Numbered from the stretch's first letter, positions 18,511-61,432 are shown. The stretch: DNA of 64,000 nt from Thermoflexia bacterium (GCA_011192125.1 DUEL01000055.1:5770-69769), one strand, 5' to 3'. Program-made: numbers and translations. The notes: a model not told the origin generated them from the sequence alone.

Positions 18511-18585
18511 AACACCACAGAGAGGCACAGAAGATCTTTGTTCTTTATTTGAAACTCTGTGCTCTCTGCGCCTCTGTGGTGTCCC
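18511..18585 (+). repeat. Dispersed imperfect-palindromic intergenic element, copy A (3' core CTCTGCGCCTCTGTGGTG)
   Basis: caccacagagaggcacagaag...ctctgtgctctctgcgcctctgtggtg; followed by promoter-like TTGACA-17-TATCAT at 18591..18619. Confidence 0.55.
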
Positions 18586-18590
18586 CCGCG

Positions 18591-18619
18591 TTGACAACCG
18601 CTGGAGTCGGTGCTATCAT
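18591..18619 (+). promoter_or_regulatory. Sigma70-like promoter (TTGACA-17-TATCAT) for the TP-rich protein gene
   Basis: ttgaca accgctggagtcggtgc tatcat, 18 nt upstream of ATG 18637. Confidence 0.35.
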
Positions 18620-18636
18620 AGCCCCGGAGTTCGACG

Positions 18637-19137
18637 ATGAGAGAAACCCGTCCGATCCATCTTGCCCTGATCGCCATCATCCTGCTGACGCTGCCTTGCT
18701 ACTGCACGGGGTTTGCCCTTCTCTATGCTCTCTCCACCACTGCTCAACCCACCCCGACGCCGACGCCGACGGTCGCCACCGACACGCCTACTCCGCCCCC
18801 GGCCTCGCCAACCCATACCCTTGAGCCGACGCCGACCCAGTGGTTCCCGCCGACCGAGACCCCGACGCCCACGGATACGCCGACGCCGTCGGCCACGCCG
18901 ACGCTCACCCCCACCTCCACCGCCACGCCGACCCTCACGCCGACGATGACCTCCACGCCGACTCCGACCAACACGCCTACGCCCACCCTCACCGCTTCCC
19001 CGACCCCCACCGACACGTCCACTCCTACTCCTACCTCCACTTCGACCCCCACGCCGAGTCCCACGCTCACCGTCACTCCGACCCCCACCTTCACGCCCAC
19101 ACCGACCATCACCGCGACGGTCCCGATCACCCCTTGA
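18637..19137 (+). CDS. Membrane-anchored or secreted Thr/Pro-rich low-complexity protein (PT-linker/mucin-like)
   Basis: Hydrophobic N-terminus [17 protein letters not shown] then about 120 aa of (T/S)PT(P/D)T repeats; promoter-like and RBS signals upstream; antisense RG/GV-rich ORFs judged artefacts. Confidence 0.5.
18740..19130 (+). repeat. Tandem codon-level repeat (ACN-CCN-ACN-CCG units) encoding the TP-rich tract
   Basis: Visible periodicity ccgacgccgacgccgac / acgccgaccctcacgccgacg throughout the interval. Confidence 0.7.
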
Positions 19138-19163
19138 GCGCAATCGTAAGGAGAGACTTCGGT

Positions 19164-20213
19164 ATGGAGACGATCCCCCTGTTGAGGGAACTTTCGGAAA
19201 CCCCCGGTTTGGCTGGTCACGAAGGGCCGATCCGGGACCTCGTCCGGCGGTTGTGGTCCCCTCTGGTGGACGAACTTCGCGAGGACGGGCTAGGGAGCCT
19301 CATTGGCACGAAGCAGGGGACGGGCCCCGAGCCGCGTCCTCGGCTGATGCTGGCTGTCCATATGGACGAGATCGGCCTGCGGGTGACGGGGATCGAGAAA
19401 GGTTTCCTGCGTGTCACCCGCCTTGGCGGGACCGACCGGCGGGTACTTCCGGGAGCGGCTGTTGTGGTTCACGGCAAGAAGGACCTCCCTGGCGTCGTTG
19501 GGATGCGACCACCCCATGTGGTTCCCAAAGAGCAGCGGAAGAAGCCAGTCCCGTGGGAGGAACTGTTCGTGGATGTGGGGTTGTCGGAAGAGGAGATACG
19601 GAGGTGGGTCCGTGTGGGCGACCCCATTTCCTTTGACCGGGAATTGGTCGAACTGAAGAACGGCCTGGTAGCCGGAAAAGCGCTGGACAACCGGGCATCG
19701 GTAGCGGCGCTGACGCTGGCGCTGGAGGAGTTGAGCCGTACCCAGCACGCCTGGGACGTGGTGGCCGTGGCGACGGTGCAGGAGGAGGTAGGGCTGTACG
19801 GGGCGGCGACCAGCGCGTACGGTGTGAAGCCGGACCTGGCGGTGGCGGTGGATGTGACATTTGGACGGCAGCCCGGGGTGTCTGCGGATGACTCCTTCCC
19901 GCTGGGTGAGGGGCCGACCATCAGCGTGGGACCCAATTTCCACCCGCAAGTGGTGGGACGGCTCAAAGCCGCCGCCGAGGCCCACGAGATTCCTTACCAC
20001 ATCGAGCCCACCCCCGGCCGCAGCGGTACCGACGCCTGGGCGATCCAGGTGGCCCGGGAGGGGGTCCCAACCGGCCTGATCTCCATCCCGCTCCGGTACA
20101 TGCACCAGCCGGTGGAGACGGTGGCGGTGAAGGATGTGGAGCGGGCTGCGCGGTTGCTGGCGGCCTTTGCGGCGGGGCTGGAGGCGAGTTTCCGGCCCCA
20201 GTGGGAGGAGTGA
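19164..20213 (+). CDS. M42 family metallo-aminopeptidase (FrvX/YsdC/CelM-like), copy 1
   Basis: METIPLLRELSETPGLAGHEGPIRDLV N-terminus; HMDEIGL, GKALDNRASVAA, VQEEVGLYGA motifs; start at internal ATG 19164 (upstream ORF part is His/Asp-rich frame artefact overlapping the PT gene). Confidence 0.8.
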   Translation: METIPLLRELSETPGLAGHEGPIRDLVRRLWSPLVDELREDGLGSLIGTKQGTGPEPRPRLMLAVHMDEIGLRVTGIEKGFLRVTRLGGTDRRVLPGAAVVVHGKKDLPGVVGMRPPHVVPKEQRKKPVPWEELFVDVGLSEEEIRRWVRVGDPISFDRELVELKNGLVAGKALDNRASVAALTLALEELSRTQHAWDVVAVATVQEEVGLYGAATSAYGVKPDLAVAVDVTFGRQPGVSADDSFPLGEGPTISVGPNFHPQVVGRLKAAAEAHEIPYHIEPTPGRSGTDAWAIQVAREGVPTGLISIPLRYMHQPVETVAVKDVERAARLLAAFAAGLEASFRPQWEE

Positions 20214-20267
20214 CGTGTTGTGCGGTATGTGATGCGTCATACGTCACACGTCATACGTCATGCGTCA
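20211..20267. repeat. NRCGTCA heptamer tandem array (5 copies; reverse complement of TGACGYN) between M42 copies 1 and 2
   Basis: gATGCGTCATACGTCACACGTCATACGTCATGCGTCAag; one more TGACGTG overlaps the stop codon at 20211. Confidence 0.6.
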
Positions 20268-20290
20268 AGGGTGTCGCCCTGGAGCGGAAT

Positions 20291-21325
20291 ATGATCCTGA
20301 AAGAACTCTCAGAGGCTTTCGGCCCTTCTGGCAATGAGAGGCCGGTCCGGCAGATACTGCGGCAGGCTTTGGAGGGCCACGTTGATCGGATGTGGGTCGA
20401 TGCGCTGGGTAACCTGCATACGGAGAAGCAGGGGACCGGGGAGGACCGACTGCGGGTGCTGGTGACCGCCCATATGGACGAGATCGGCCTGATGGTCGTG
20501 GGCCACGACGACGACGGCACACTGAAGGTCCGAGCCATTGGCGGGATCGATCCCCGAGTCCTGCCCGGCGCGCAGGTCCTGGTGGGACCGGACCGGCTCC
20601 CCGGTGTGATCGGCCTCAAGCCGGTCCATCTGCTGAAAGAAGGGGAGGCGGACAAAGTTGCCACCATCGACCAGTTGCGGGTGGACATCGGGGCCAAGGG
20701 GAAGGAGGAGGCGAAGAATCTGGCCCCGGTGGGGGCGGTGGTGGTGTTCGCCACGCGGTTCCGTGAGTTAGGGCCGACGGTGATGGGTAAATCGTTCGAC
20801 GATCGGGTGGGGTGCGCGGTGCTGGTGGAGCTGCTTCGTGGGGAGCGGTTCCCTCACGATCTGCATGCCGTCTTCACCGTACAGGAGGAGGTAGGGCTGC
20901 GCGGCGCGCGGGTGGCGGCCTACGCCGCCTGTCCGGATTGCGGTTTCGCGCTGGAGGGGACCATCGCCGACGACCTGCCCAAGGAGAAGGACGTCAGCCC
21001 CACTACGGAGTTGGGGAAGGGTCCGGCGATCACGGTGATGGACCGGACCTTCATCGCCCATCGGGGATTGAACCGGCTGCTGGTGGAGACGGCAGAGGAG
21101 TTGGGCATTCCCTGCCAGTTCAAACAGCCCGGCATCGGCGGCACCGATTCGGGGGCGGTCCATCTGGCCCGGGAGGGGGTCCCCTGTGCCACTGTGGCTG
21201 TCCCCTGTCGCTACATCCACAGCCCGGCCAGCCTCCTCAGCCTTGCCGACTTTGAGAACACCGTGCGGTTGATGCGGGAGGCGCTGAACCGATTGAGGCG
21301 GGAACACGTTGGATCATCTTTTTGA
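20291..21325 (+). CDS. M42 family metallo-aminopeptidase, copy 2
   Basis: MILKELSEAFGPSGNERPVRQILRQ; HMDEIGLMVV, FDDRVGCAVL, VQEEVGLRGA. Confidence 0.8.
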   Translation: MILKELSEAFGPSGNERPVRQILRQALEGHVDRMWVDALGNLHTEKQGTGEDRLRVLVTAHMDEIGLMVVGHDDDGTLKVRAIGGIDPRVLPGAQVLVGPDRLPGVIGLKPVHLLKEGEADKVATIDQLRVDIGAKGKEEAKNLAPVGAVVVFATRFRELGPTVMGKSFDDRVGCAVLVELLRGERFPHDLHAVFTVQEEVGLRGARVAAYAACPDCGFALEGTIADDLPKEKDVSPTTELGKGPAITVMDRTFIAHRGLNRLLVETAEELGIPCQFKQPGIGGTDSGAVHLAREGVPCATVAVPCRYIHSPASLLSLADFENTVRLMREALNRLRREHVGSSF

Positions 21326-21384
21326 TCGCGGAGCGCGGAGGTTCTTAGCGAAATCTTCTCCGCGTCCTCTGCGTCTCTGCAGTG
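21326..21384 (+). repeat. Dispersed element, copy B (GCGGAG...TCCTCTGCGTCTCTGCAGTG)
   Basis: gcggagcgcggaggttcttagcgaaatcttctccgcgtcctctgcgtctctgcagtg, 5' of M42 copy 3. Confidence 0.5.
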
Positions 21385-21417
21385 AAATCGGAGCGCGAAC
21401 ACAGAGGGAGAGGAGAC

Positions 21418-22398
21418 GTGAGAGACCTGATTCGCAAACTGACTGAGACCTATGGCCCTTCGGGCTTTGAGGATCGTATCCGTGCGGTGATCCGGGAGGA
21501 GGTCGAGCCGCTGGCCGACGAGGTGCGGGTAACGCCGCTGGGCAGTCTGGTGGCGGTGAAGAAAGGCACCGGCGGGGGCCGGCGGATCATGCTGGCGGCC
21601 CATATGGACGAGATCGGTGTGATGGCCAGCCACGTGGACGACAAAGGGTTCCTCCGCTTCACTGCCATCGGTGGCGTCAACCCTCTTACCTGCGTCGGAG
21701 CGCGGGTGCAGTTCGAGGACGGGACGTTGGGGGTGATCGGCGTTGAGGGGAAGCGGGAGGATCGGACGAAGGCCCCCCGCCTTGATCAGTTGTACATCGA
21801 CGTGGGGGCGACGGGTAAGGATGACTGCCCTGTGCGGGTTGGGGACGCGGCCGTCTTCGTGCGGCCCTTCGCGGTCCGGGGCACGCGGCTCATCGCTAAG
21901 GCAATGGACGACCGGATCGGCTGTGCAGTGCTGATCGAGACCCTGCGGCGGTTGGAGGGGACGTCCAACGAGGTGTATTTCGTGTTCAGTGTACAGGAGG
22001 AGACCACCCTTTCCGGGGCGCGGACGGCAGCTTATGGGATCGAGCCCGATCTGGCGATTGCGGTGGACGTGACCGGGACGGGGGACACGCCGGAGGCACG
22101 GCCGATGGCGGTGGAGTTGGGCAAGGGTCCGGCGGTGAAGGTGCAGGACCGGGGGATGATCGCCCATCCGCTGGTGCGCGACCTGCTGGTGCGGGCGGCG
22201 GAAGCGGCGGGGGTGGCCTGCCAGATGGAGGTCCTGGAGCGCGGCACCACCGACGCGGCGGCGATGCAGTTGGTGCGGGCGGGTGTTCCCTCTGGCTGTC
22301 TTTCCATCCCTTGTCGCTACGTCCACACCCCCAGCGAGATGGTGGATGAGGGGGATGTGGAAGGGGCGGTGAAGGTATTGGTCGAAGCGGTCCGATGA
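21418..22398 (+). CDS. M42 family metallo-aminopeptidase, copy 3 (GTG start at 21418 preferred; ORF opens at GTG 21382)
   Basis: RDLIRKLTETYGPSGFEDRIRAVIREE aligns with N-termini of copies 1 and 2; HMDEIGVMAS, MDDRIGCAVL, VQEETTLSGA; GGGAG 7 nt upstream of 21418. Confidence 0.75.
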   Translation: MRDLIRKLTETYGPSGFEDRIRAVIREEVEPLADEVRVTPLGSLVAVKKGTGGGRRIMLAAHMDEIGVMASHVDDKGFLRFTAIGGVNPLTCVGARVQFEDGTLGVIGVEGKREDRTKAPRLDQLYIDVGATGKDDCPVRVGDAAVFVRPFAVRGTRLIAKAMDDRIGCAVLIETLRRLEGTSNEVYFVFSVQEETTLSGARTAAYGIEPDLAIAVDVTGTGDTPEARPMAVELGKGPAVKVQDRGMIAHPLVRDLLVRAAEAAGVACQMEVLERGTTDAAAMQLVRAGVPSGCLSIPCRYVHTPSEMVDEGDVEGAVKVLVEAVR

Positions 22399-23210
22399 GA
22401 TCGGTGGAGCGGTTGAGCGAACTCTGGCGGTATCGGGAACTGATCTACAACCTGGTCATCCGCGACCTCAAGGCGCGGTACAAGAACTCCATACTGGGCA
22501 TCGCGTGGTCGTGGCTCAACCCGCTGATGATGATGGTGGTCTACACCGTCGTCTTCAACGTCCTTGCGGGCCGCTCCGGGATTCCGGACTACCCGGTCTT
22601 TCTTCTCTCGGCGCTTCTGCCGTGGAACCTGTTTGCCAACTCGGTCGCTGAAGCGACCAACAGCGTCGTCCAATCCGCCCCGCTGATCAAGAAAGTGTAC
22701 TTTCCTCGGGAGGTTCTTCCCATTTCCGTCGTGCTGGGTAACGCAGTGCACTTCGTGATTAGCCTCCCGGTCTTCTTTGGGTTAGCCCTGGCGATGGGAC
22801 GGCCGATCAGTGGGTGGGTACTTTTGTTGCCTGTGACTCTCCTCGTTCAAATCGCGTTCACGCTGGGGGTCGGGCTCATCACGGCCACGTTGAACGTCTT
22901 TTATCGGGACACCTACCTGATAATGAACGTCCTGCTCACGGCGTGGTTTTTCCTGACCCCCATTTTCTATCCCATCACCACCGTCCCGGAGCAATACGTC
23001 CTCTGGGGGATTGTGTTCAACCCTCGGGTCTGGCTGCGCCGGCTGAACCCGATGGCTTCTATCATTGCCTCTTATCAGGACCTCCTCTACTGGGGCGCGC
23101 CCACCGGTTGGGACTTCTTCTTGCGGACAGCTGTGACGTCGGTGGTGGTCCTGATCGTGGGTTACCTGGTCTTCCTACGGTATAGTCCGAGGTTTGGGGA
23201 GGAGGTGTGA
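22395..23210 (+). CDS. wzm: ABC-2 type polysaccharide export permease (Wzm/KpsM/TagG family)
   Basis: ELIYNLVIRDLKARYKNSILGIAWSWLNPLMMM signature and 6 TM helices; 4-bp overlap with M42 copy 3. Confidence 0.8.
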   Translation: MRSVERLSELWRYRELIYNLVIRDLKARYKNSILGIAWSWLNPLMMMVVYTVVFNVLAGRSGIPDYPVFLLSALLPWNLFANSVAEATNSVVQSAPLIKKVYFPREVLPISVVLGNAVHFVISLPVFFGLALAMGRPISGWVLLLPVTLLVQIAFTLGVGLITATLNVFYRDTYLIMNVLLTAWFFLTPIFYPITTVPEQYVLWGIVFNPRVWLRRLNPMASIIASYQDLLYWGAPTGWDFFLRTAVTSVVVLIVGYLVFLRYSPRFGEEV

Positions 23211-23261
23211 AGAGCAAGGCCTCGCTCTAGATCTGCAAGAGTAGCTTTGGGTTGGGACGAG

Positions 23262-23759
23262 TCAGTCTGGTAGATCTATAGCAACCTCCCCCAAATCAGT
23301 GATTGCCCCCGCTTCAACGGTTACTAGAATATCCAGACCTGTTTCCGGATCAGTGACCACCCACGAATTCCCCGGAGTCCAAATCACCAGTGCATATGTA
23401 TCTGGCTCGACGTCTAGAAAGGCAAAATAACCGTTCTTGTCAGTTGTGGTGCTTGGGGATGAGCTTGGCAGCATTGTGATAATGTGGGACCCGGGGGCCC
23501 CCTCCAGGGGAGATAGTTCGCCTAGATAGATGACCATTTCCACCGCAGGCTCTCCGGAGATATAATCAACAAATCGGCCAGTGATTATCCCTTTGTCGAC
23601 TGGTGGATTAGGGAGTGGGGTCGGGCGGGTCCCCGTGGGAGTGGCAAGGGGGCTGACGTATAGGGGCGATTCGAAGGTCAACTCGGGAGTTGGTCTGACG
23701 TTGCAACCGGATAGACCTATGATTAGGATCGGTAAGATTGCGATGGTCAGACGTTTCAT
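23262..23759 (-). CDS. Lipoprotein with carboxypeptidase-regulatory-like beta-sandwich domain
   Basis: Lipobox ILIIGLSGC; DKNGYFAFLDVEPDTYALVIW pattern; start set at ATG 23759 with GGAGG RBS (upstream ORF part is read-through of the hairpin). Confidence 0.5.
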   Translation of the reverse strand: MKRLTIAILPILIIGLSGCNVRPTPELTFESPLYVSPLATPTGTRPTPLPNPPVDKGIITGRFVDYISGEPAVEMVIYLGELSPLEGAPGSHIITMLPSSSPSTTTDKNGYFAFLDVEPDTYALVIWTPGNSWVVTDPETGLDILVTVEAGAITDLGEVAIDLPD

Positions 23760-23778
23760 GCGTGTACCTCCATCTATT

Positions 23779-23820
23779 ACGCACTCGAAGGCCACCAACC
23801 CTGGTGGCCTTCGAGTGCGT
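23779..23820 (-). terminator. Perfect 19-bp inverted repeat with 4-nt loop between convergently ordered minus-strand genes; terminator or processing/regulatory hairpin
   Basis: acgcactcgaaggccacca-accc-tggtggccttcgagtgcgt; 18 nt after the stop of 23839..25167 and ending just before the RBS of 23262..23759; no U-tract follows. Confidence 0.4.
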
Positions 23821-23838
23821 TGTCAGTGAGATTGAACT

Positions 23839-25167
23839 TTACTGCCCGATACCGTTGTAGGCATAGAGCTGATCCATTATCTGATCACGCTCGGGTGCCT
23901 CGTTCATATCCTCGTTGACTACGCAGACGATGGGTTGTGTCGAGGTTATTGTGGCCGAGCCAATGAAACCATCGCTCAGCAGGGAGTCGGCGGGCTGGTA
24001 GAATAGGTGAATTCCGTTTACAGGGATTGATGGAGAGGTCGTTGTCCCGCTAATGCCGCCATAGGATATGGACATTGTGGCAGAGGCGGTGCCGATGTTC
24101 TGACAGGTGATGCTGGTGTTGTACTTGTAGTAACGCCGCATCACGATTGGAGCACGCACAGTGGTGCTGCCACTTGTGAAGCCGGAGTAGCTGGCCGCAC
24201 GGTTCTTGTCGGTTGACTCGTTTACCAGCACCGCAAGAGGTTGTCCGTTGGTGCTCTCGATCTTGGCACCGGTCAGCAAGCCGGTGGCTAGCCCTTCAAG
24301 CGGTGTGTAACGGCTGTCCGCTGCACCGGGGGGGATCGTCGTATACTTCACTGTGCCGTCGGAGTAGGTGATCTTTACATTCGCATCGGCTGTGCCCATG
24401 TTCTGGATCACAAGTGCGGTGTTGTAACCGTAGTAGTTGTTCATGATCACTGGCGCGTAGGCAACGGTGGAGCCGCTGGAGAAGGGGTTGTATGAGTAGA
24501 GCTGGTCATCATAGGGCCCCCTACCGTAAATGTTTACAACGGCTGCAATGTTCCCCGTGCCGATGATTTTGGCCGAGTAGAATTTGTTGTCGGCGAGCTG
24601 GGCTAGTCCTTCTTGTTCAAAAACGACAAAGCCGTTGGCCGGCACGTTGGTTCGAGTGTCCGTATAGACCGGGGTGGAATTACCGGGTTCATAGATCTCC
24701 AACGTGATATCGATCGTACTACCACTGGCGTTCTGTACAATCACGTTGGAGTAGTAATTGTAGTAATTGTCGTAGATACCGGGTGCGTACAAGGTAGTGG
24801 CGACCTCGCTGCCGCTTATACCACTGTAGCTTGCCCCGCTGTCCGGATCGCTGAAGTTTACGACGGCTGCTACTTCTTGGTCACAGCTGACCACACCAGC
24901 GTATTGTCCATCTGCTACTGTGGTGTCGCTCGGTACGTAGATGTAAGCACTTTCACCTGCGGGGATCGGCGAGAGGGCGCCACTGGAGTACACCTCGTTG
25001 CCGTTGGCGTCATAGAAGCTGAAGACGCAGTTTGCATCCTGAGTCCCCAGGTTCTGAATACGGAACGCTGTATTGAAGGGCCCTTCAGGTGCTGGCGCAT
25101 CGGCGTTGACAGCAACTGGAAGTGTCAGCAGGAGTATGATCATCACGAGGGGTATGTACTTTTTCAT
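23839..25167 (-). CDS. Secreted protein with four internal repeats of about 105 aa (beta-rich, Tyr/Asn/Ser/Thr-rich), possible cell-surface or S-layer-associated
   Basis: Signal peptide MKKYIPLVMIILLLTLPVAVNA; repeat cores NYYNYYSNVIVQNASGSTIDITLEIY / NNYYGYNTALVIQNMGTADANVKITY / RRYYKYNTSITCQNIGTASATMSISY; AGGAGG RBS. Confidence 0.55.
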   Translation of the reverse strand: MKKYIPLVMIILLLTLPVAVNADAPAPEGPFNTAFRIQNLGTQDANCVFSFYDANGNEVYSSGALSPIPAGESAYIYVPSDTTVADGQYAGVVSCDQEVAAVVNFSDPDSGASYSGISGSEVATTLYAPGIYDNYYNYYSNVIVQNASGSTIDITLEIYEPGNSTPVYTDTRTNVPANGFVVFEQEGLAQLADNKFYSAKIIGTGNIAAVVNIYGRGPYDDQLYSYNPFSSGSTVAYAPVIMNNYYGYNTALVIQNMGTADANVKITYSDGTVKYTTIPPGAADSRYTPLEGLATGLLTGAKIESTNGQPLAVLVNESTDKNRAASYSGFTSGSTTVRAPIVMRRYYKYNTSITCQNIGTASATMSISYGGISGTTTSPSIPVNGIHLFYQPADSLLSDGFIGSATITSTQPIVCVVNEDMNEAPERDQIMDQLYAYNGIGQ

Positions 25168-25255
25168 CTTTTAAACCTCCTTTGCCTGATAGGTCGCCCG
25201 CTTAGACGATTTGAAGATATCATAACGGAGGAATTAGCCCTCGGTCAATACTCCT

Positions 25256-29444: not shown

Positions 29445-29630
29445 CTCGATTCGCTCGTCTTGCTTTCCCGAGTGACTTTAGGACGAAAACGGTATCAAAT
29501 CCGTTCCCATTTTAAGGTGCCTGCTCTGTCGATGTAATTGAAGAAGCCATCTCCATACCCGACATCAAGTATTGGGCTAGTCTGGGTGTGGGTGAGAACA
29601 AGCCGGCGATAATAGGCAGCAAAGTGAGGA

Positions 29631-31927: not shown

Positions 31928-32021
31928 CTCTTATACCCCGGGTTCCGAGACAGGATCCATCGCTTCGCTTACGGCCCAAGGAGGTAGACTTGGAATGGCC
32001 CAATGGCCTCTCGCTTAAGCA

Positions 32022-32045
32022 CCGAACGTTCCGCAAGTGAACGTT
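32022..32045. promoter_or_regulatory. Two copies of palindromic GAACGTTCC 15 bp apart, candidate operator upstream of GT4 gene 30827..31927
   Basis: accGAACGTTCCgcaagtGAACGTTCCgtc; GAACGTTC is self-complementary; about 95-120 bp upstream of the gene start. Confidence 0.3.
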
Positions 32046-32145
32046 CCGTCAGCGCAGCAGGACCCTGCCCTGGCAGGTAGATGAGCCAGACGCGAGATCA
32101 TCTTTTTACAAGTTCGTCCATCAACTTCCCCTGCCATCCCGCTGG

Positions 32146-36856: not shown

Positions 36857-36870
36857 ACTTCTGCTTATGC

Positions 36871-45128: not shown

Positions 45129-45189
45129 CTGGACCATTCAATCGGGGTGAAGATCGGTAGCGCATCTTAGCGTCGAGGGTGGAGAGGCG

Positions 45190-48144: not shown

Positions 48145-48171
48145 GGAGGCGCCTGTGACGGGTCCTCCCAA

Positions 48172-49224: not shown

Positions 49225-49234
49225 CTCTCACTCG

Positions 49235-50611: not shown

Positions 50612-50653
50612 AATGTTCAACCCCTCCACTGCACCGCTGTTGTCGCACGCCCG

Positions 50654-51886: not shown

Positions 51887-52226
51887 AGTATGTCCTCAGC
51901 CACTCGCGAACATTTTTTGGGACTTACGTCCCAAATAAACGCTACCAAGAGGGTCGGGTTGCATGATAACACACCTCTGGTGAAACGCCAAATACTGTCC
52001 GAGTGTTTGGCATTGTGCAGGGAGAGAGGGAACCACACCTGCTGGGTTGACACAGGTGTACTCCGCTTAAGCGGTTTGACGGAGGGCGGCGGATTTGTTA
52101 AGATGTCTCCGGTGACCAGCCAGGGCACCCCTTACGGCGCGCTCGGGTGCGCCATAGGGAACCTGCGGAGGGCTCCCTTGCAAAAGTGTCAGGTGGCTGG
52201 GAAACTGACCAAGAGGAGGTTCCATC

Positions 52227-53099
52227 GTGTGCGTGGGGAGAGTCGATGTGAGATTCCGGGTTTTTCTACTACTAGTGCTGTTCACAACCGCCTGCCAGGG
52301 AACCTCGCGTGAGCCGTTGGTCTTCAGCGGAGAAGCCGCCTATGCCCACGTGGAGGCCCAATGCGACCTCGGCCCCCGGCCCACCGGTTCCTCTGCCAAC
52401 CGAGCTGTCGGCGACTACATTATCTCCGTTCTGGAGGACGAAGGGTGGGCGGTGGAGACGCAGGAGTTCGCCTACCGCGATACGCCTGTACGGAACATCG
52501 TCGGCAAAGCGGGGGAGGGGCCGGTGGTGATCCTGGGGGCCCACTACGACACCCGTCGCCAGGCCGACCAGGAGGATCCCACCCAGCCGGTCCTGGGAGC
52601 CAACGACGGGGCCTCCGGCGTCGCGGTGCTTCTGGAACTGGCCCGGGTGCTCGATCTGGACCGAGTGGATCGTCAGGTCTGGCTGGCCTTCTTCGACGCC
52701 GAGGACAACGGCCGGCTCGACGGATGGGAGTGGTGTGTTGGCTCTTCCTATATGGCCAACCACCTGGAGGTCGTGCCGGAGGCGGTGGTCGTCGTGGACA
52801 TGGTCGGTGATGCGGACCAGCAGTTCTACTTCGAGGGTAATTCCGACCCCACCCTCCAGCAGGAGTTGTGGGAGATCGCGGCGACGCTGGGGTACACGGA
52901 GACGTTCCGCAGCGAGTACCGCTGGACGATCTACGACGACCACGTCCCCTTCGCCCAACGGTCCATCCCAGCGGTGGACATCATCGATTTCGATTATCCC
53001 TATTGGCACACCACGCAGGACACGCCCGACAAGGTGAGCCCCGCGAGCCTGGAGCGGGTGGGACGGGTGCTGGAGGTGTGGCTGGAGGGGGCTCCGTGA
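52227..53099 (+). CDS. M28 family peptidase (aminopeptidase/glutaminyl-cyclase-like), lipoprotein; GTG start
   Basis: VLFTTACQG lipobox; ILGAHYDTRRQ...GANDGASGVAVLLELARVL...FFDAEDNG motifs; GAGGAGG RBS. Confidence 0.7.
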   Translation: MCVGRVDVRFRVFLLLVLFTTACQGTSREPLVFSGEAAYAHVEAQCDLGPRPTGSSANRAVGDYIISVLEDEGWAVETQEFAYRDTPVRNIVGKAGEGPVVILGAHYDTRRQADQEDPTQPVLGANDGASGVAVLLELARVLDLDRVDRQVWLAFFDAEDNGRLDGWEWCVGSSYMANHLEVVPEAVVVVDMVGDADQQFYFEGNSDPTLQQELWEIAATLGYTETFRSEYRWTIYDDHVPFAQRSIPAVDIIDFDYPYWHTTQDTPDKVSPASLERVGRVLEVWLEGAP

Positions 53100-53130
53100 C
53101 GTGTGGCGTATGACGCTTGACGTATGACGT
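53097..53130. repeat. TGACG pentamer/heptamer tandem array (4 copies) in convergent intergenic region
   Basis: TGACGtgtggcgtaTGACGctTGACGtaTGACGtg. Confidence 0.6.
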
Positions 53131-53145
53131 GTTGCGCCTCACCCG

Positions 53146-54819
<1,674 letters not shown>

Positions 54820-54829
54820 CCTTTCCCCC

Positions 54830-55543
54830 TCACGTTTCCGCTTCCTGGTCTGGCGTTCTTTCCCCAAGAAACCGCTTCAGCGCGTCCCAGGCCGCGGCCT
54901 GCTCGGCGGCTTGTTTAGATCGACCTTCGCCACGGCCAGCTACTTTGCGGCCCAGCAGCACCTCGGCCACGAAGGTCTTGGCGTGGTCGGGCCCCATCTC
55001 GGCCACGATCCGGTAGCGGGGGGTCACCCCGCGCTCCGCCTGCGCCCACTCCTGGAACCGGCTCTTGGCGTCTCGGTCGGCCTCGTTGGCCAGGATGGCC
55101 TCGGCGGCGGGGGGGACAAGGCGTCCCAGGAGCCGCTGGACCGGTTCGATCCCCCCGTCGAGGTAGAGGGCACCGACCAGGGCTTCGAAGCCGTCTCCCA
55201 GGTTGGCGATGCGCTCTCGACCGCCCCCTGTCTCCTCCCCGTGTCCCAGGCGGAGAGCCTCCCCCAATCCCAGCTGGGTGGCGAAGTCGGCCAGGGTCTC
55301 CTCTCGCACCAGCGCGGCCCGCAACCGGGTCATCTCCCCCTCGTGGAAGTCGGGGAAGCGCTGGTAGACCCAGGCCGCCACGGCGAAGTTGAGCACCGCG
55401 TCCCCTAAGAACTCCAGCCGCTGGTTGTCCGGCCCCTCTTCGGGGTGCTCGTTGACATAAGAAGGATGGGTAAGGGCGCGGATCAGAAGGTCCTCGTCCC
55501 GAAAACGATAGCCAATGCGGTCTTGAAAAGCGTCAAGGTTCAT
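54830..55543 (-). CDS. rnc: Ribonuclease III
   Basis: HPSY...[11 protein letters not shown] RNase III signature and C-terminal dsRBD. Confidence 0.85.
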
Positions 55544-55557
55544 CTCAGATCGCGGAT

Positions 55558-55610
55558 TGACGTTTGAGTCTGACGTTTGACGTCTGACGTTTGGCGTTTG
55601 ACGTAACGTT
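55558..55610. repeat. TGACGTT heptamer tandem array (6 copies) between mazG-like stop and rnc start
   Basis: TGACGTTtgagtcTGACGTTTGACGTCTGACGTTTGGCGTTTGACGTAACGTT. Confidence 0.6.
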
Positions 55611-55926
55611 AGGCTCCTGCCGTTTGCGACCCCGCCCTTCCACTCTGTGCCAGTCGACGTTCATACTTCGCCAGGGCTTCCTCCAGTGCCTCGCCCGCGT
55701 CCACCCCGCACGATTCGGCCAGGGTGAGGAGGGAGTAGAGGGCGTCGCCGATCTCGGCACGGAGGTCGTCGGTGGTCTGAAAGGGCTCGTTGCCGTACTC
55801 CGTGCTCTCCAGCACCGCTTTGGCGATCTCCCCGACCTCCGCCGCCAGGTCGAGGGCGTGGGCGACGGGGGTGTGGAGCAGCCCGTGTCGGCGGGCGAAC
55901 GTAGCGACGCGGTGTTGCCAGTTCAT
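55609..55926 (-). CDS. MazG-like nucleotide pyrophosphohydrolase (small single-domain)
   Basis: LAAEVGEIAKAVLE...AEIGDALYSLLTLAE EExxE/D motifs. Confidence 0.7.
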   Translation of the reverse strand: MNWQHRVATFARRHGLLHTPVAHALDLAAEVGEIAKAVLESTEYGNEPFQTTDDLRAEIGDALYSLLTLAESCGVDAGEALEEALAKYERRLAQSGRAGSQTAGA

Positions 55927-56116
55927 TGCGTGGAACCGAAAGGGATGACCGATTGTGCCCCTGCCTTGCGCGGACGGCTGACGAAGCGCTTCAGTCCCTG
56001 GTCAAGAAATACCCGACGTTCCTGTAGCCGGTTATCGTTCTCTCTGCGTTCCTGCATCGCTGATTATGGTAGCACAGAATGGGGAAGAGGGCAATCCGGT
56101 CTGACCGGGGTGGGGG

Positions 56117-57208
56117 TCATCCGCTGTGCTTGAGCCCGCTGCCGGTGAGGATCGCCACAACGGTCCCCGTTAGCCGCTCTTGCAGGTGATCCAGCGCGGC
56201 GACCGCCACCGCCGACGTCGGTTCAACGTAGAAGCCCCGGTGGGCCAGCCGCTTCCACGCTGCCCGAATCTCCGGCTCCGACACGGCGAGCATTCCACCT
56301 CCGCTGGCGCGAACCGTCGTCAGGATCTCCCGCCCGCGCACCGGCGCGGCGATACGCACCCCCTCGGCGACGGTATCCCCCTCGGCGACTGGCTCCGGCT
56401 CCTCCGCCCCCCGCTCCCATGCGGCGACCAGCGGCGCGCAGGCGGCGGCCTGGATCCCGTAGAGGCGCGGGACCTTCCGGGTGCACCCGGCGGCCCGCAG
56501 TTCGTCGAACCCCATCGCCAGCCCCAGCAGGAGCGAGCCGTGGCCCACGGGGAGGACCACCGCGTCGGGGGCTCGCCGACCCAGTTGCTCCCACAGTTCG
56601 AAAGCGATGGTCTTCATCCCATGGTGGATCAGCGGGTGGTAGACGTGGCTGGCGTAGACAGCCCCTCTGTCCGCGGCCTTCAGCACCGCCTCGGCCGCTG
56701 CTGCGCGAGGGCCGGGGACCGCCACCAGCCGAGCGCCGTAGGCGGCGATCTGGGCCTTCTTGGCGGGGGAGGCGTGGGCGGGGACGTAGATGGTGGCCCG
56801 CAGGCCAGCCCGCGCGGCGTAGGCGGCCAGGCTCGACCCAGCATTGCCGGAGGAGTCCTCCACGACAGCCTCCACCTCGGTGGCCGCCAGCGCGGTGATC
56901 AGGATCGCTGTCCCTCGGTCCTTGAAGGACCCCGTAGGGTTAAGGGATTCGCACTTGAAATGGACTGATAGACCATCCCACTCTGCTTCCACCAGGGGGG
57001 TCATGCCCTCTCCCAGCGTGACGGGCCGGGCTCCCCTCGGCAACGGCAGCGTGTGTCGATACCGCCACAGGGTGAAGTCGTCCACACCCACCCGCGCCGG
57101 ATTGAAGGCCGGTGCGTCGGCGATCTTCAACGGCCCTCCGCAGTCGCACCGGAACCGCGTCGCCTCCCACCGGTACGTCGCTCCACAACGGGCACAGGCC
57201 AACCGCAT
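56117..57208 (-). CDS. thrC: Threonine synthase (PLP-dependent, with N-terminal zinc ribbon)
   Basis: CARCG...CDCGG ribbon; FKCESLNPTGSFKDRG PLP lysine motif; AGGAGG RBS. Confidence 0.75.
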   Translation of the reverse strand: MRLACARCGATYRWEATRFRCDCGGPLKIADAPAFNPARVGVDDFTLWRYRHTLPLPRGARPVTLGEGMTPLVEAEWDGLSVHFKCESLNPTGSFKDRGTAILITALAATEVEAVVEDSSGNAGSSLAAYAARAGLRATIYVPAHASPAKKAQIAAYGARLVAVPGPRAAAAEAVLKAADRGAVYASHVYHPLIHHGMKTIAFELWEQLGRRAPDAVVLPVGHGSLLLGLAMGFDELRAAGCTRKVPRLYGIQAAACAPLVAAWERGAEEPEPVAEGDTVAEGVRIAAPVRGREILTTVRASGGGMLAVSEPEIRAAWKRLAHRGFYVEPTSAVAVAALDHLQERLTGTVVAILTGSGLKHSG

Positions 57209-57347
57209 AACTACCTCCTGGAACGTGCCTCGCTATTATACCTTCCCCGGCCGGAGGAGCGCAAGGGGGTTTTTGACACCGTGTCTGTAGCAAGTCGGTA
57301 GGTAGGGAGGATGCGAGCGGGTGAGGCAACGGGTCGCAAACGAATGT

Positions 57348-57377
57348 AACGAATCGGAGATGAGCCTCCGATTCGTT
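57348..57377. promoter_or_regulatory. 12-bp perfect inverted repeat (taacgaatcggag-atgagc-ctccgattcgtt) in divergent thrC/57473 intergenic region
   Basis: Read directly; flanked by cgaat/tcgttca direct repeats. Confidence 0.3.
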
Positions 57378-57429
57378 CACTCGTTCAGGGTTCGCTGTCC
57401 CATCTCTCCTACCAAACTGTTACCACACT

Positions 57430-57457
57430 TTGACACCGTGTGGGGACGTGTTATACT
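57430..57457 (+). promoter_or_regulatory. Sigma70-like promoter with extended -10 (TTGACA-16-TGtTATACT) for gene 57473
   Basis: ttgaca ccgtgtggggacgtgt tatact; predicted TSS within about 10 nt of the ATG. Confidence 0.3.
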
Positions 57458-57472
57458 GCTAAAGGGGGCGCG

Positions 57473-57901
57473 ATGGCGAGCGAGGGTGTGCATTTTCTCA
57501 GCCCGGATCGAGCCCGGTATCTGGTGGAAGTAGCAGAGCGGGCGCGGGAGGAGTTGGGCCGCTGGGCCGGTCAGCGGGTCAACTACGACGCCACCGCGCT
57601 CCAGTTGCTCGACGAGTGGATCGAGCACGTGGTGCGCTCGACACCGAGCCCACCGCCGTCGATGCAGGTGTTGTGGACCGCGTTTCTGGGAGAGGTTTTC
57701 CGCCGCCGCTATCAGGGGGAATGGGTTGTCCGAGAGGATGACGGGAAGGCCCTGGGTGTGCTATGCCCGATGGAGGCCGGGGGACTCCACGTCGTGGAGG
57801 TCGCTCGGCAGGTGCGGCGGCGTATCCAGAACGGCTTCGCCGACTCGCTGGCCCTCTTCTACGTCCGCGAGGGAGCCCTGCTGCGGGGACAGGTCGATTA
57901 A
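57473..57901 (+). CDS. Hypothetical protein (143 aa)
   Basis: ORF with AAGGGGG RBS; no recognisable motif. Confidence 0.4.
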   Translation: MASEGVHFLSPDRARYLVEVAERAREELGRWAGQRVNYDATALQLLDEWIEHVVRSTPSPPPSMQVLWTAFLGEVFRRRYQGEWVVREDDGKALGVLCPMEAGGLHVVEVARQVRRRIQNGFADSLALFYVREGALLRGQVD

Positions 57902-58612
57902 GAGTGCTGCCCTTCCCTCACTTTCCGTGTGGCTCGCCAGATGTTGGCCCGAGCGCGGTCCTGATGTGGGCCGAGGCTTTGCAGGAAGGCTTCGATCTGT
58001 CGGCGCCAGGTATCGGCCGCACCAGGGCATGGCGGGGGTGGGGGAAAGCCGGACTGCCGGGCGTAGTAGGCCAGGTCCTTCGCCGCGACGTAGATCAACG
58101 GGCGGATCACCGTGATCCGCCCACCGAAGAACGCCACTTTGGGCTCCAGCGTCTCCAGCCGACCGGTGAACAGCAGGTTGAGCAGCGCGGTCGCGGCCGC
58201 GTCGTCGGCGTGATGGCCCAGGGCCAGTTTGTTGCATCCCAACCGGTCGGCGGCCAGGAAAAGGGCCTTGCGCCGGTTCCAGGAGCAGCGGAAGCAATTC
58301 AGGGGCAACGGCTCCCCCGGTGGCAGTTCCAGCGGGATAAAGTGGTATTCGACACCCAGTTCCTCAAACCACGGCCTGAGAACGCTGGAGAGGTCGGAGA
58401 AACCGGCTGCCGTACCGACCACGTGGAGGGCGACCAGGTCGTAACTGAAAGGGACCCGCTCCCGATAGCGCAGGAGCAGGTCCAGAAGCGTGCGGCTGTC
58501 TTTCCCCCCGGAGACGGCCACCGCCACCCGGTCGCCGTCGGCTAGCAGGTCGAACTCCTTACACGCTCGCGCCACCTCCTTCAGCAGCGCTCGTGCTGTC
58601 TGCTCCTTTCCC
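57898..58612 (-). CDS. ttcA: PP-loop ATPase of the TtcA family (tRNA 2-thiocytidine synthesis-like)
   Basis: VAVSGGKDS PP-loop; CFRC...C cysteine cluster; ATG 58612. Confidence 0.65.
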
Positions 58613-58615
58613 ATC

Positions 58616-59660
58616 CTACCCCTGGTCGCTCCCCGAGCCCAGTCGCTCCGCGTACTGCCGCTGATAGTACTCCTGGTAGTGCTTCCCACTCTTGATCGGC
58701 CGCCACCACCATTCGTTCTCCACGTACCAGCGGACCGTCTTTTCGAGGGCCTCTTCGAACGTGTGGCGGGACTCCCATCCCAGGGCGCGGATCTTGCTGA
58801 TGTCTAACGCGTAGCGGCGGTCGTGGCCGGGTCGGTCCTTCACGTGGCGAATCAGCGAGTGAGGTTTGCCCAGGATGTCGAGGATCGCGCGGGCCATATC
58901 GATGTTTCGTGTCTCTACACCGGTGCCCAGGTTGTAGACCTCCCCTGGCTGTCCCCTGTGAAGCACCACGTCGATCCCCTCGCAGTGGTCGACCACGTAC
59001 TGGTAATCCCGCATCTGGCTGCCGTCACCGTAGAGGGGCAGGGGCTGATCGTCGATGGCGTTCGTGATGAAGAGCGGCACTACCTTCTCCGGGTACTGGT
59101 AGGGGCCGATGTTGTTGGACCCTCGGGTGATGGTGACCGGGACGCCGAAACTGGTGAAGTAGGCGATACACAGCAGATCGCCGCTGGCCTTGGAGGCGGA
59201 GTAAGGGCTGCGGGTGTGAAGGGGGTCGGTCTCCTTCGCGCGCCCCTCCAGGACCTCCCCGTAGACCTCGTCCGTGCTCACCTGGTGGTACCGCTCCAAC
59301 CCGAACTCCTTCGCCGCCTCCAGCAGGACGTAGGTGCCGAAAACGTCGGTGCGGATGAACTCGTCCGGCTCCATCAGGGAGCGATCCACGTGGGTGGCCG
59401 CGGCGAAGTTGACGATGGTGTCGATGTCGTGCTGGCGGATCACCTCCCGCACCAAGTCGGCGTCGCAGATGTCCCCTTTGACGAAGGTGTACCGATCGCC
59501 GAAATCCTGGGCCACGTCCTTCAGGTTCTCCAGGTTCCCCGCGTAGGTCAGTTTGTCGTAGACGACGATCCGGTAGTCGGGATACTTCCGGAGCATATAC
59601 CGGACGAAGTTGGAGCCGATGAACCCGGCTCCGCCGGTCACCAACAGGTTGCGCACGATC
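58616..59660 (-). CDS. rfbB: dTDP-glucose 4,6-dehydratase
   Basis: LLVTGGAGFIGSNFVRYML..YDKLTYAGNLENL..TDEVYG..YSASKA signature; GTG 59660 preceded by GGAGGAGGAGG (ORF extends to 59776 through a repeat element). Confidence 0.85.
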
Positions 59661-59710
59661 CTCCTCCTCAGGTGTTGGGATGGCGATATTGTACCACATC
59701 CGAGGCGAGA

Positions 59711-59847
59711 GGCAATCGCATTTTCCGTAACCGCGGAGGCGCAGAGAGCGCAGAGTTCAACGTTTTTCCCCTCCATTCTCCGTGTCCTCTGCGCCTCTGC
59801 GGTGAGATCCGGCTGCCACCACCTACTTCCTGGAAAATGCGATAGCC
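59711..59847 (+). repeat. Dispersed element, copy C, nested inside outer 17-bp inverted repeats (ggcaatcgcattttccg / ggaaaatgcgatagcc)
   Basis: ccgcggaggcgcagagagcgcagag...attctccgtgtcctctgcgcctctgcggtg in rfbB/nfeD divergent region. Confidence 0.55.
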
Positions 59848-59940
59848 CTGCCCCCCGACACGGTTTCGGTGGCCTCGTCGGGGGGAGTAGGGTATAATGG
59901 AGGCAGATTCGGCGGTCTGGGAGGGATGAGGAGGGATGTG

Positions 59941-61266
59941 ATGAGAACCCGAGCGGTCGTCCTGTTGGTCGGCGTCTGGTTACTCGGGCTCCTGTCTCCG
60001 AGCGGAGTGGGAGCCCAGGGGGAGCGGACCGTTTTCGTCCTCACTGTGGACGATGCGATTACCACCACGATAGCGGACTATTTCGAGAGAGGGATCGATC
60101 TGGCCGAGGAGGCCGGGGCTGAGGCGGTGGTCATTCGGTTGAACACCCCCGGTGGGGATTTGGCCTCCACGGTTCGTATTATGGAGACGCTAGAGAACGC
60201 CCAGGTCCCGGTGATCGTCTACGTCTGGCCCCGGGGCGGGATGGCGGCCTCGGCAGGTACCCTGATCCTGTTGGCGGCTCACGGCGCGGCGATGGCCCCC
60301 CGTACCACCATCGGCGCCGCGCATCCGGTCACGTTGCCAGGAGGCGAAGAGGGGGTCCCGGAGGATCTAATCGAGAAGATGACCAACGTGATGGCGGAGC
60401 ACGCTGCGCTCTTCGCCGAGCGGCGAGGTGAGGAAGCGGCGACGTGGGCGGAGAAGGCGATCCGGGAGAGCGCGACCGCCAGCCCGGAGGAGGCGCTGGA
60501 ACTGGGGGTGATCGACCTGATCGCGGCGGATATGGACGACCTCCTTGAGGGGTTCGACGGTCGGCAGGTGAGGTTGGGGGACGGCCGAGAGGTCGTGCTG
60601 CGGACCGCGGGGGCGGCGACCAGGGAGGTGCCGATGTCCCTCATCGAGCAGCTGCTCTCCGTGTTGATTAACCCAAACATCGCGCTGCTTCTTCTGGCCA
60701 TCGGGGTGCAGGCCATCCTGATCGAACTCTCCTCGCCGGGCGGGTGGGTCGCTGGGTTCGTCGGCGTGCTGTGTCTCGCCTTGGCCGCCTACTCGATGGG
60801 CGTGCTTCCGGTTAACTGGCTGGGTCTGCTGCTGATCGTTGTGGCCTTCGTCCTGTTCGCGCTGGACATCAAAGCGCCGACCCACGGGGCGCTGACGGCG
60901 GCGGGGGTGGGCACGTTCATCGCTGGCGCGCTGATCCTCTTCAACGCGCCCGTGGGCTCCCCGTATGGCCGAGTCTCCGTCCCCCTCGTGGTGGCGGTGG
61001 CGGTGATGACGGCGCTCTTCTTCGCCTTCGTCGTCGCCAAGGCGATAGGGGCACAGAAGCCCCGTCCGGTCACTGGGAAGGAGGGGCTGATCGGCCGCCA
61101 GGGTGTGGTGAAGGCGCGGCTCGATCCCCGGGGCATCGTTCTGGTCGCTGGGGAGCGGTGGCAGGCCGAGTCCTTAGAGGGCCCGATCGAGGAGGGAGAG
61201 ACGGTCGAGGTGGTGGAGGTGGTCGGCTTCCGCCTCCGTGTGCGGAAGGTCGCGTCCGATGCATAA
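59941..61266 (+). CDS. nfeD: NfeD-like membrane-bound ClpP-class serine protease
   Basis: Signal peptide; ClpP-like domain (GGMAASAGTLILLAAHGAAMAP), TM block, C-terminal OB-fold (RGIVLVAGERWQAES). Confidence 0.75.
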   Translation: MRTRAVVLLVGVWLLGLLSPSGVGAQGERTVFVLTVDDAITTTIADYFERGIDLAEEAGAEAVVIRLNTPGGDLASTVRIMETLENAQVPVIVYVWPRGGMAASAGTLILLAAHGAAMAPRTTIGAAHPVTLPGGEEGVPEDLIEKMTNVMAEHAALFAERRGEEAATWAEKAIRESATASPEEALELGVIDLIAADMDDLLEGFDGRQVRLGDGREVVLRTAGAATREVPMSLIEQLLSVLINPNIALLLLAIGVQAILIELSSPGGWVAGFVGVLCLALAAYSMGVLPVNWLGLLLIVVAFVLFALDIKAPTHGALTAAGVGTFIAGALILFNAPVGSPYGRVSVPLVVAVAVMTALFFAFVVAKAIGAQKPRPVTGKEGLIGRQGVVKARLDPRGIVLVAGERWQAESLEGPIEEGETVEVVEVVGFRLRVRKVASDA

Positions 61267-61276
61267 CCGTTCGCTT

Positions 61277-61305
61277 TTGACAGAGGGTGACCCGTGTGCT
61301 ACAAT
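61277..61305 (+). promoter_or_regulatory. Near-consensus sigma70 promoter (TTGACA-17-TACAAT) upstream of hypA with about 145-nt leader
   Basis: ttgaca gagggtgacccgtgtgc tacaat. Confidence 0.45.
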
Positions 61306-61344
61306 TCCCACCTGACTCGCAGGACTTGCGCAGTTTCGTCGATT

Positions 61345-61432
61345 TTCGCCACAGAGATACAGGGGACGCGGAGTTTCAGAAAACCTCTCGATTCTCCATC
61401 CGTTTCTCCGAGTCCTCTGTGACTCTGTGGTA
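61345..61432 (+). repeat. Dispersed element, copy D, within hypA 5' leader
   Basis: gccacagagatacaggggacgcggag...attctccatccgtttctccgagtcctctgtgactctgtgg. Confidence 0.5.

Follow-up and report, generated by a model that had tools for sequence, protein, structure and literature searches.

Intergenic hairpins of a Thermoflexia bacterium as probable gene-less copies of a dispersed heptad-arm element linked to GxxExxY genes

A 64,000-nucleotide stretch of the genome of a Thermoflexia bacterium (GCA_011192125.1, DUEL01000055.1:5770-69769), the whole of which is here called the window, contains four imperfectly palindromic elements, E1 to E4, that lie close to a TP-rich gene, the third of three M42 peptidase genes (M42 copy 3), nfeD and hypA, respectively. 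The question they raise is whether they are a signal shared by these genes or a repeat that has come to lie beside them. An earlier note on the window had entertained both a cis-regulatory RNA motif and an element of the repetitive extragenic palindromic (REP) or miniature inverted-repeat transposable element (MITE) kind. The answer given here is that E1 to E4 are not regulatory RNA dedicated to the adjoining genes, and that they are probably passengers: non-autonomous, MITE-like copies, devoid of an open reading frame (ORF), of a dispersed hairpin element which, at full length, would be an apparently undescribed selfish cassette with a GxxExxY gene.

Four copies of one element

E1 to E4 are members of a dispersed hairpin family with arms built of heptads. 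They were found at the four sites that the earlier note had named, with the limits given in Table 1. The arm in the window copies, of about 27 nt, is a CACC tip followed by three tandem CRCRGAG heptads (CACAGAG, CGCAGAG or CGCGGAG) with spacers of 1-2 nt, and the inverted arms, over 20-26 nt, are 81-85% complementary and enclose loops of 17-32 nt. The 3′ arm motif, CTCTGYGNCTCTGYRGTG, is matched 9 times with at most 3 mismatches in the window where 1.31 matches are expected, a total of 9 being attained in 0 of 100 shuffles; three of these window matches, on the reverse strand, are the 5′ arms of E1, E3 and E4. The potential for a long imperfect hairpin that had been proposed for each is borne out by RNA folds of -27 to -45 kcal/mol with z of -3.0 to -7.3 against shuffles (E3, -44.6 kcal/mol, z -7.3; E4, -40.9 kcal/mol, z -5.5), and for E1, E3 and E4, with E2 the exception, the minus strand folds about as well as the plus strand. 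All four are short and non-coding and have terminal inverted repeats.

The copies differ in completeness. E1 has two heptads in its left arm, one short of the three in its right arm, and the second heptad in the left arm of E4 is degenerate. E2 is truncated, the outer part of its left arm being gone and the remainder being GCGGAGCGCGGAG. The tip core CACC/GGTG is kept in E1 and nearly kept in E3 (AACC...GGTG) and E4 (CGCC...GGTA); the TT and AA that flank the tips elsewhere in the family (TT[C/A]ACC...GGT[G/T]AA) are not kept in the copies of this GC-rich genome. What had been taken as the signature of the family, GCGGAG and ATTCTCC, is the form that the third heptad (CGCGGAG / CTCCGYG) takes locally, together with loop, and does not mark the family in general.

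Membership was assessed with a covariance model trained on 34 short copies from other organisms plus E3, with which the window was scanned with filters off. In the 64 kb it matches E3 (65.4 bits, in the training set), E4 (43.6 bits, E 3e-8), E1 (39.0 bits, E 4e-7) and, as a partial match over model positions 14-64, E2 (23.4 bits, E 0.002), and nothing further that is credible. Every copy scores on either strand, E1 better on the minus (39.0 versus 34.3 bits), and the element is a near-perfect palindrome with the GGTG-ending motif at both ends; a common orientation is therefore not measurable, and the claim that all four point the same way falls with it. Three candidates for a fifth copy were rejected: 22598-22624, a chance match within an ORF; 59026-59043, also a chance match; and 23780-23819, the next model match at 20 bits, which is an unrelated palindrome. 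This last is perfect over 18 bp (ACGCACTCGAAGGCCACC...GGTGGCCTTCGAGTGCGT), lies between two minus-strand ORFs and is without a T-run.

Dispersal across bacteria

The similarity of the four copies is certainly not chance, because very many further copies exist; the search that the earlier note had proposed as a check thus disposes of the chance resemblance it had allowed for. Across the family an arm has 2-4 tandem heptads with the core C-R-Y-N-R-A-G and spacers of 1-4 nt, the two arrays being inverted around a variable centre and the tips being (TT)[C/A]ACC...GGT[G/T](AA). An arm word retrieved at least 120 stretches from IMG/VR contigs, in which 91 copies with both arms were recognized, their centres measuring about 10 to 170 nt. 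A strict three-heptad arm pattern, for which about 0.5 matches would be expected by chance in the 596 Gb of a species-representative genome collection, is present there at at least 120 loci in at least 15 phyla. The carriers listed are Acidobacteriota (the most frequent), Planctomycetota, Chloroflexota, Bacteroidota, Cyanobacteria, Verrucomicrobiota, Armatimonadota, Spirochaetia, Alpha-, Beta-, Gamma- and Zetaproteobacteria, Thermodesulfobacteriota, Myxococcales, Lentisphaerae, Gemmatimonadales, Sumerlaeota and Desantisbacteria, with the isolates Geothrix limicola, Algoriphagus sp. A40, Lyngbya sp. CCY1209 and an Undibacterium sp. among the matches listed. The arms are thus spread across phyla; a single arm in a metagenome-assembled genome (MAG) of Methanotrichaceae could be a binning error.

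Copies without a gene occur in all types of intergenic region (47 co-directional, 34 divergent and 26 convergent, n=107). In some phage-like IMG/VR contigs (L016, L033/L042, L074) a hairpin stands in nearly every intergenic spacer, with 4-5 copies in 8-11 kb. Among isolated phage genomes no GxxExxY gene was found, and the hairpin was found in three metagenomic 'Bacteriophage sp.' records only. A search of literature text for the arm sequences gave no relevant occurrence.

Filled and empty sites

The window copies are polymorphic for presence and absence between close relatives. In a sister MAG, GCA_964580565.1 (loci L004 and L333), in which NfeD is 90% and the S58 peptidase 92% identical to those of the window, the site of E1 is empty, the spacer from the S58 stop to the conserved TTGACA-17-TATCAT being without the element (L333), as is that of E4, with a hypA leader of about 30 nt from TACAAT to GTG (L004). 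The promoters and genes that flank the two empty sites are kept. The counterpart of E3 is present in L004 at 9761-9829 in decayed form, part of its left arm having been lost, and about 120 nt upstream of it is an extra canonical copy, at the centre of an insertion of about 190 bp (9570-9760) relative to window positions 59700-59730. Sites that are empty (E1, E4) or decayed (E3), together with an extra copy elsewhere, are as would be expected of a mobile intergenic repeat and not of a conserved leader, and on this point, as on copy number, intergenic position and occurrence in many phyla, the suggestion of a REP- or MITE-like element has stood up well. Other relatives at about 90% have canonical copies at unrelated sites (L005, L330, L332), and a relative at 81% has 0 copies in 21 kb. 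A further filled and empty pair, L024 and L048, was aligned with a gap-tolerant aligner, and its site is between a stop codon and the ribosome-binding site (RBS) of the next gene. Two short contigs of the same organism as the window terminate at E4, which is expected because repeats break assemblies. The NfeD of the window is 100% identical to a protein of a Thermoflexia bacterium MAG (Chloroflexota), and HypA, with either of two starts, has no exact match among recorded proteins.

The insertion in L004 has an 8-bp direct repeat, CGTTTTCC, and an 18-bp inverted repeat of its own, GGACGTGAGTTCGGACAT, an arrangement suggestive of a hairpin that sits inside, or was brought along by, a second small element; no further occurrence of this outer repeat was found in any collected locus. 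E3 too has an outer inverted repeat, which the earlier note had put at 17 bp: it is real and is also present in L004, its measured length being 16 nt at 94%, and its left arm overlaps the -35 of a minus-strand promoter-like site. Nesting in an outer inverted repeat as a general property of the family was rejected, as flank pairing past the tips is weak (positions 3-11).

Transcriptional context

The four copies were described earlier as occupying 5′ intergenic sites. Scans for promoter-like sites place them instead in four different promoter and gene contexts, of which one, that of E4, is a leader. E4 lies between the strong promoter-like site TTGACA-17-TACAAT and the RBS and GTG (61452) of hypA, in keeping with the earlier placement, and since that promoter-like site is upstream of E4 the element is within the hypA transcript. 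The S58/P1 peptidase gene stops at TAG (18508-18510), 2 nt past which E1 starts; the other end of E1 is 8 nt short of the -35 box in TTGACA-17-TATCAT, and because this second promoter-like site is downstream of it E1 is outside the transcript of the TP-rich gene. E2 is intercistronic and fills the spacer between tandem peptidase genes, from the stop of M42 copy 2 (21325) to the ORF of M42 copy 3 (21382..22398). E3 is in a divergent region, with the promoter of nfeD (plus strand) on one side and that of an epimerase gene (minus strand, ATG at 59699) on the other.

Table 1. Hairpin elements and associated features, in window coordinates (a point marks features to which no strand is assigned)
Feature	Position	Strand	Details
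E1, hairpin element without ORF	18511..18583	.	left arm 18512-18531, right arm 18563-18582
E2, truncated copy	21327..21384	.	right arm 21358-21384, complete, 3 heptads
E3, complete copy, 3+3 heptads	59727..59806	.	arms 59730-59755 / 59778-59803
E4, complete copy, 3+3 heptads	61345..61434	.	arms 61349-61373 / 61406-61430
Promoter-like site TTGACA-17-TACAAT	61277..61305	+	11/12, extended TG; upstream of E4 and hypA; kept in L004
Promoter-like site TTGACA-17-TATCAT	18591..18619	+	downstream of E1; kept in L333, which is without E1
Outer inverted repeat around E3	59711..59847	.	GGCAATCGCATTTTCC (59711-59726) / GGAAAATGCGATAGCC (59832-59847)

These contexts bear on the notion that the hairpin is a cis-regulatory RNA structure for the TP-rich gene, M42 copy 3, nfeD and hypA. 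The location of E4 within the hypA leader, that of E2 just upstream of M42 copy 3 with its right arm 78% complementary to the RBS region, and the stability of the folds are all what such a role would predict. Against it, E1 and E3 are upstream of the promoter-like sites of the genes they precede, E1 and E4 are missing from the orthologous sites of the sister genome, the downstream genes are unrelated in function, and in many phyla the same element is found beside other unrelated genes. Rfam gives no match in the window at the gathering threshold, there being no rRNA in the window either, and in E-value mode the window regions and multi-copy loci yielded sub-threshold look-alikes of miRNA hairpins only. 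With copies in every type of intergenic region and heptads that change in concert (see below), this role is poorly supported and very improbable. Termination is not an evident function either: the scans list no intrinsic terminator (hairpin plus T-run) at E1 to E3, no copy precedes a T-run, and the one terminator-like site of E4 consists of a sub-stem of 5 bp followed by a weak tail, the count of such sites not being above that in shuffles.

The complementarity at E2 is between 21357-21374 in its right arm and 21399-21416, the RBS region of M42 copy 3, which is rich in purines and resembles a degenerate left arm (ACACAGAGGGAGAGGAGA). Alternative pairing between the two was rejected, as the E2 fold, when extended, does not surpass shuffles (z 0.24).

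A form that carries a gene

At many loci the arms are physically linked to GxxExxY genes. In the full-length form the arms enclose one gene encoding a GxxExxY protein of about 125 amino acids (TIGR04256 / PF13366 PDDEXK_3, of the PD-(D/E)XK nuclease fold). Three of the four arm pairs that are 520-560 nt apart enclose such a gene (L173, L222, L168), one of the three being frameshifted; the genes between arms match TIGR04256 with E 1e-41 to 1e-44, and PF13366 also. The loci selected by their arms hold 176 short two-armed copies and 3 gene-bearing ones, and all 5 of the GxxExxY genes in them have flanking heptad arms, two with other heptad types. Because loci selected in this way are biased, 80 metagenome loci were chosen by GxxExxY protein patterns alone. 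In 55 of the 77 that could be tested (about 70%) the gene is flanked by inverted arms of 2-5 tandem heptads. These vary by locus, CGCAAAG and CACAGAG being the commonest, with CACAAAG, CACGGAG, CACGAAG, CAGTGAG and CATGAAG also represented; C....AG, with tips TT[C/A]AC...GT[G/T]AA, is common to all cassette heptad types. In Bacteroides finegoldii a GxxExxY gene between radA and the next gene has the arms TTCACCACAGAGGACGCAGAGGACACGGAGG / CTCTGTGACCTCTGTGTCCTCTGTGGTGAA, of the CACAGAG type like those of the window, and on a chromid of Sphingomonas parapaucimobilis one with CGCGAAG arms is between fabD and fabG.

At 23 of 30 loci the genes on both sides run in the same direction as the GxxExxY gene, and at many loci 0-30 nt lie between the left arm and the start codon, leaving no room for a promoter of its own. 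Protein similarity tracks heptad type (rho -0.28; 0/500 permutations). In a four-sequence alignment (A1) the nuclease motif has D67, E77 and K79 in every sequence. The family is very large, one search having found over 8000 close database clusters, and a published listing (PMC3424549) gives PDDEXK_3 no known function and multiple inter-domain transfers. In the full text of the literature no account of linkage between arms and GxxExxY genes was found, and of the papers that name the family none is on mobility.

GxxExxY was the sole recurrent cargo, a Phage_gp49_66 family gene and a DUF6335 gene being met once each. The former is in a 416-nt element (L008 9467-9882; also L064 and L105), the right end of which also has a CTTCGTG-type arm, and the latter in one of 668 nt (L135 1615-2282). 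Further cargo candidates were rejected as ordinary phage genes between two adjacent hairpins.

Motif array or RNA stem

Whether the arms are maintained as a stem or as an array of motifs can be approached through the way they vary. Over 35 short copies 88% of the cells pair, and double changes number 60 where shuffles have 28 +/- 7, so the covariation that the earlier note had suggested looking for is there in amount; it is not specific to pairs. Agreement of the variable purine is as high between heptads that are not partners (L1-R3, 33/35; L3-R2, 27/29) as between those that are (L1-R1, 34/35; L3-R3, 28/35), and the covariation is therefore a matter of subfamily identity common to all six heptads. 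Between the arms of gene-bearing cassettes the heptad cores are 94% and the spacers 60% complementary, and at spacer positions of the short copies G-T, G-C, A-T and A-C are about equally frequent. There is no G-U bias either, mismatches of G-T type on the sense strand of the gene in gene-bearing cassettes numbering 83 and those of A-C type 80. Concerted heptads, poor spacer pairing, lack of G-U bias and occurrence of gene-less copies in all types of intergenic region favour, as far as sequence comparison goes, arms that would be arrays of a specific recognition motif acting at the DNA level and not stems maintained by pairing. Those cassettes that are transcribed within operons may have an RNA role in addition.

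Such a role is central to a rival account, in which the element is an RNA-level selfish cassette like the intervening sequences of 23S rRNA: RNase III would cut the stem of about 27 bp, freeing the cassette RNA and sparing the operon, and the gene-less copies would be left-over processing or stability stems. The sense orientation of the gene-bearing form between co-directional genes, the frequent want of space for a promoter, arms that match in length the 28-bp stem of the intervening sequence in Coxiella (PMC4990558), the stable folds of all four window copies and the certain location of E2 and E4 in transcribed regions are in its favour. Several features count the other way: G-U pairs are not in excess over A-C, spacers pair poorly, the core C....AG and the tip show more conservation than pairing needs, and the heptads vary in concert instead of pair by pair. 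Moreover, gene-less copies are equally common in divergent promoter regions (34/107, E3 being one), where transcription is not needed, and the spread of copies is left unexplained. This account is considered unlikely.

A possible mechanism of spread

If the arms are read as DNA-level motifs, the heptad arrays would be recognition sites of a sequence-specific protein, most simply the GxxExxY nuclease of the cassette itself. That protein, acting at the DNA level, may move cassettes with a gene in cis and hairpins without one in trans, in the manner of insertion sequences and their MITEs. The full-length cassette sits in sense orientation between co-directional host genes. Those copies that are transcribed (E2 in the M42 cluster, E4 in the hypA leader and, probably, E1 in the S58 mRNA at its 3′ end) would each add a stable hairpin which may alter mRNA stability or processing, presumably without having been selected as a regulator of the genes concerned. 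The step from linkage to movement by the GxxExxY nuclease is one that we infer. More broadly, and put forward tentatively, the hairpins and GxxExxY genes could together be a previously undescribed class of mobile element in most bacterial phyla, in which one nuclease gene for about 125 amino acids is set within inverted arrays of its own sites, inserted without target duplication in operon spacers and expressed by host read-through, and mobilizes the far commoner gene-less hairpins in trans.

A number of observations weigh against this reading of E1 to E4 as non-autonomous copies of a mobile cassette. No target-site duplication was detected, direct repeats of 2-8 nt at offsets 0-7 in 163 unique copies being as in shuffled partners. 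The loops of 98 ORF-less copies hold no GxxExxY remnants, which leaves an origin by simple internal deletion of a full-length cassette no more than a possibility. Solo arms exist, some as 2-3 in tandem in the same orientation (L207 60-220, L142 1820-1890, L147 5800-5900), and they tell against a simple two-ended transposon because that model does not predict them. No GxxExxY homologue was found in the window or in loci L001-L007, the window copies being the gene-less form; sequence search of the PDB gave no solved homologue of GxxExxY; and the predicted structure is poor (predicted local distance difference test score, pLDDT, 48). The correlation of protein similarity with heptad type could be confounded by host taxonomy. 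Finally, co-oriented neighbours, together with arms whose length of about 27 bp is that of an RNase III substrate, would also be compatible with an RNA-level role of the arms. The solo arms of L142, it may be added, are directly upstream of a start codon.

The empty loops lend themselves to another interpretation, in which the hairpin is an independent intergenic repeat, GxxExxY is a homing-type nuclease gene that inserts into its loops, and the window copies are targets as yet unoccupied. PD-(D/E)XK homing endonucleases are an established class, and this proposal would account both for ORF-less loops without gene remnants and for the large excess of ORF-less copies over gene-bearing ones at arm-selected loci (176 versus 3). 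It fits poorly with the tracking of protein similarity by heptad type, with the presence of arms around some 70% of the GxxExxY genes sampled regardless of arms, in very different hosts, and with tight arms in compact junctions such as fabD-fabG, where a prior hairpin is not expected. It is judged quite improbable.

Movement by a REP-associated tyrosine transposase (RAYT), which is IS200/IS605-like, would make the family one of REPs or of REPINs, a REP/REPIN-type element. An extragenic, multi-copy, imperfect palindrome without target-site duplication is in keeping with that. The arm, however, is a tandem heptad array and not a self-complementary REP unit (e.g. CACCACAGAGGCACAGAGGACACAGAG), the recurrent gene encodes a PD-(D/E)XK protein (PF13366) and not a HUH transposase, no search aimed at RAYT genes having been made, and near-identical arms over many phyla are unlike the lineage-specific REPs. 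Like the regulatory RNA, this alternative is poorly supported, and there is very little chance that it is correct.

Relation to known systems

By analogy, the element would seem to work most like a MITE with a gene-bearing parent, the architecture of the parent being nearest to that of an ORF-containing rRNA intervening sequence. The Correia or NEMIS elements of Neisseria are MITEs of 100-155 bp with terminal inverted repeats of about 26 bp. The hairpin family is similarly short and codes for no protein; terminal inverted repeats of about 27 bp enclose a variable centre, and the family has many intergenic copies, often co-transcribed as hairpins, presence and absence polymorphism between relatives, and a longer relative with the same ends and a gene inside. 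It differs in being without target-site duplication, in having ends that are tandem heptad arrays and loops that are not gene remnants, in the gene of the long form, which encodes a PD-(D/E)XK protein of about 125 amino acids and not a known transposase, and in near-identical ends found in at least 15 phyla and not in one genus.

Coxiella burnetii's intervening sequence is 428-444 nt, holds an ORF for the S23p four-helix bundle in a 28-bp stem and is excised by RNase III (PMC4990558). It shares with the full-length cassette a small ORF of unknown function within a terminal inverted-repeat stem of about 28 bp, the sense orientation in a host transcript and a sporadic distribution that suggests horizontal transfer, and it is regarded as selfish. 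The cassettes, in contrast, are between protein-coding genes and not in rRNA helices, their cargo is GxxExxY and not S23p, their heptad arms are conserved in sequence, and the window copies are without an ORF.

REPs in bacterial interspersed mosaic elements (BIMEs) and REPIN-RAYT systems are likewise extragenic imperfect palindromes of high copy number, without target duplications and with one repeat-flanked gene, the differences being that the hairpin family has tandem heptads, a PD-(D/E)XK and not a HUH-Y1 fold, and a cross-phylum distribution. With integron cassettes, and their attC sites, there is in common a promoter-less small gene inserted in the sense orientation and expressed by read-through, with a boundary that is a palindromic recombination site. 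The heptad-arm elements have inverted arms on both sides of the gene and no R/L boxes, extrahelical bases, integrase or platform, and they are scattered through operons and not arrayed.

Other features of the window

Two one-armed arrays of 5-6 tandem TGACGNN heptads, at 20214-20270 and 53094-53152 in opposite orientations, have a tandem-heptad arm in common with the hairpin family, with a different heptad and no partner arm. Each starts at or just past a stop codon, that of M42 copy 1 (20213) and that of a plus-strand gene ending near 53099. The M42 genes themselves, at 19200-22400, are three tandem paralogues with DNA stretches that are 64-82% identical at a spacing of about 1.1 kb, and there is a further tandem duplication at 62937-63379 and 63510-63952 (573-nt spacing, 72-75% identical). 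A 46-nt inverted match (74%) between 13683-13728 and 51946-51991, centred on GTTATCATGCAAC, looks like a common -10 box and leader start of two genes on opposite strands. The G+C content is patchy: 0.51-0.58 over 1-14000, rising to 0.65-0.69 at about 14 kb and dropping after about 22 kb.

Implications

For the window, the immediate consequence is the removal of a tempting but wrong annotation, that of a regulatory motif shared by the TP-rich gene, M42 copy 3, nfeD and hypA. Elsewhere, the hairpins are a possible source of breaks in metagenome assemblies and are ready-made structures able to alter mRNA stability at the sites where they land. Arms of about 27 nt are nearly unchanged in Chloroflexota, Acidobacteriota, Planctomycetota, Bacteroides, Sphingomonas and others and enclose GxxExxY genes set into conserved operons such as fabD-fabG, and their linkage to these genes offers a directly testable hypothesis for what the GxxExxY protein recognizes. 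Should the tentative proposal of a mobile-element class prove true, it would assign a role to a very large family of proteins whose function is unknown and would define a novel form of transposition or homing driven by a nuclease.

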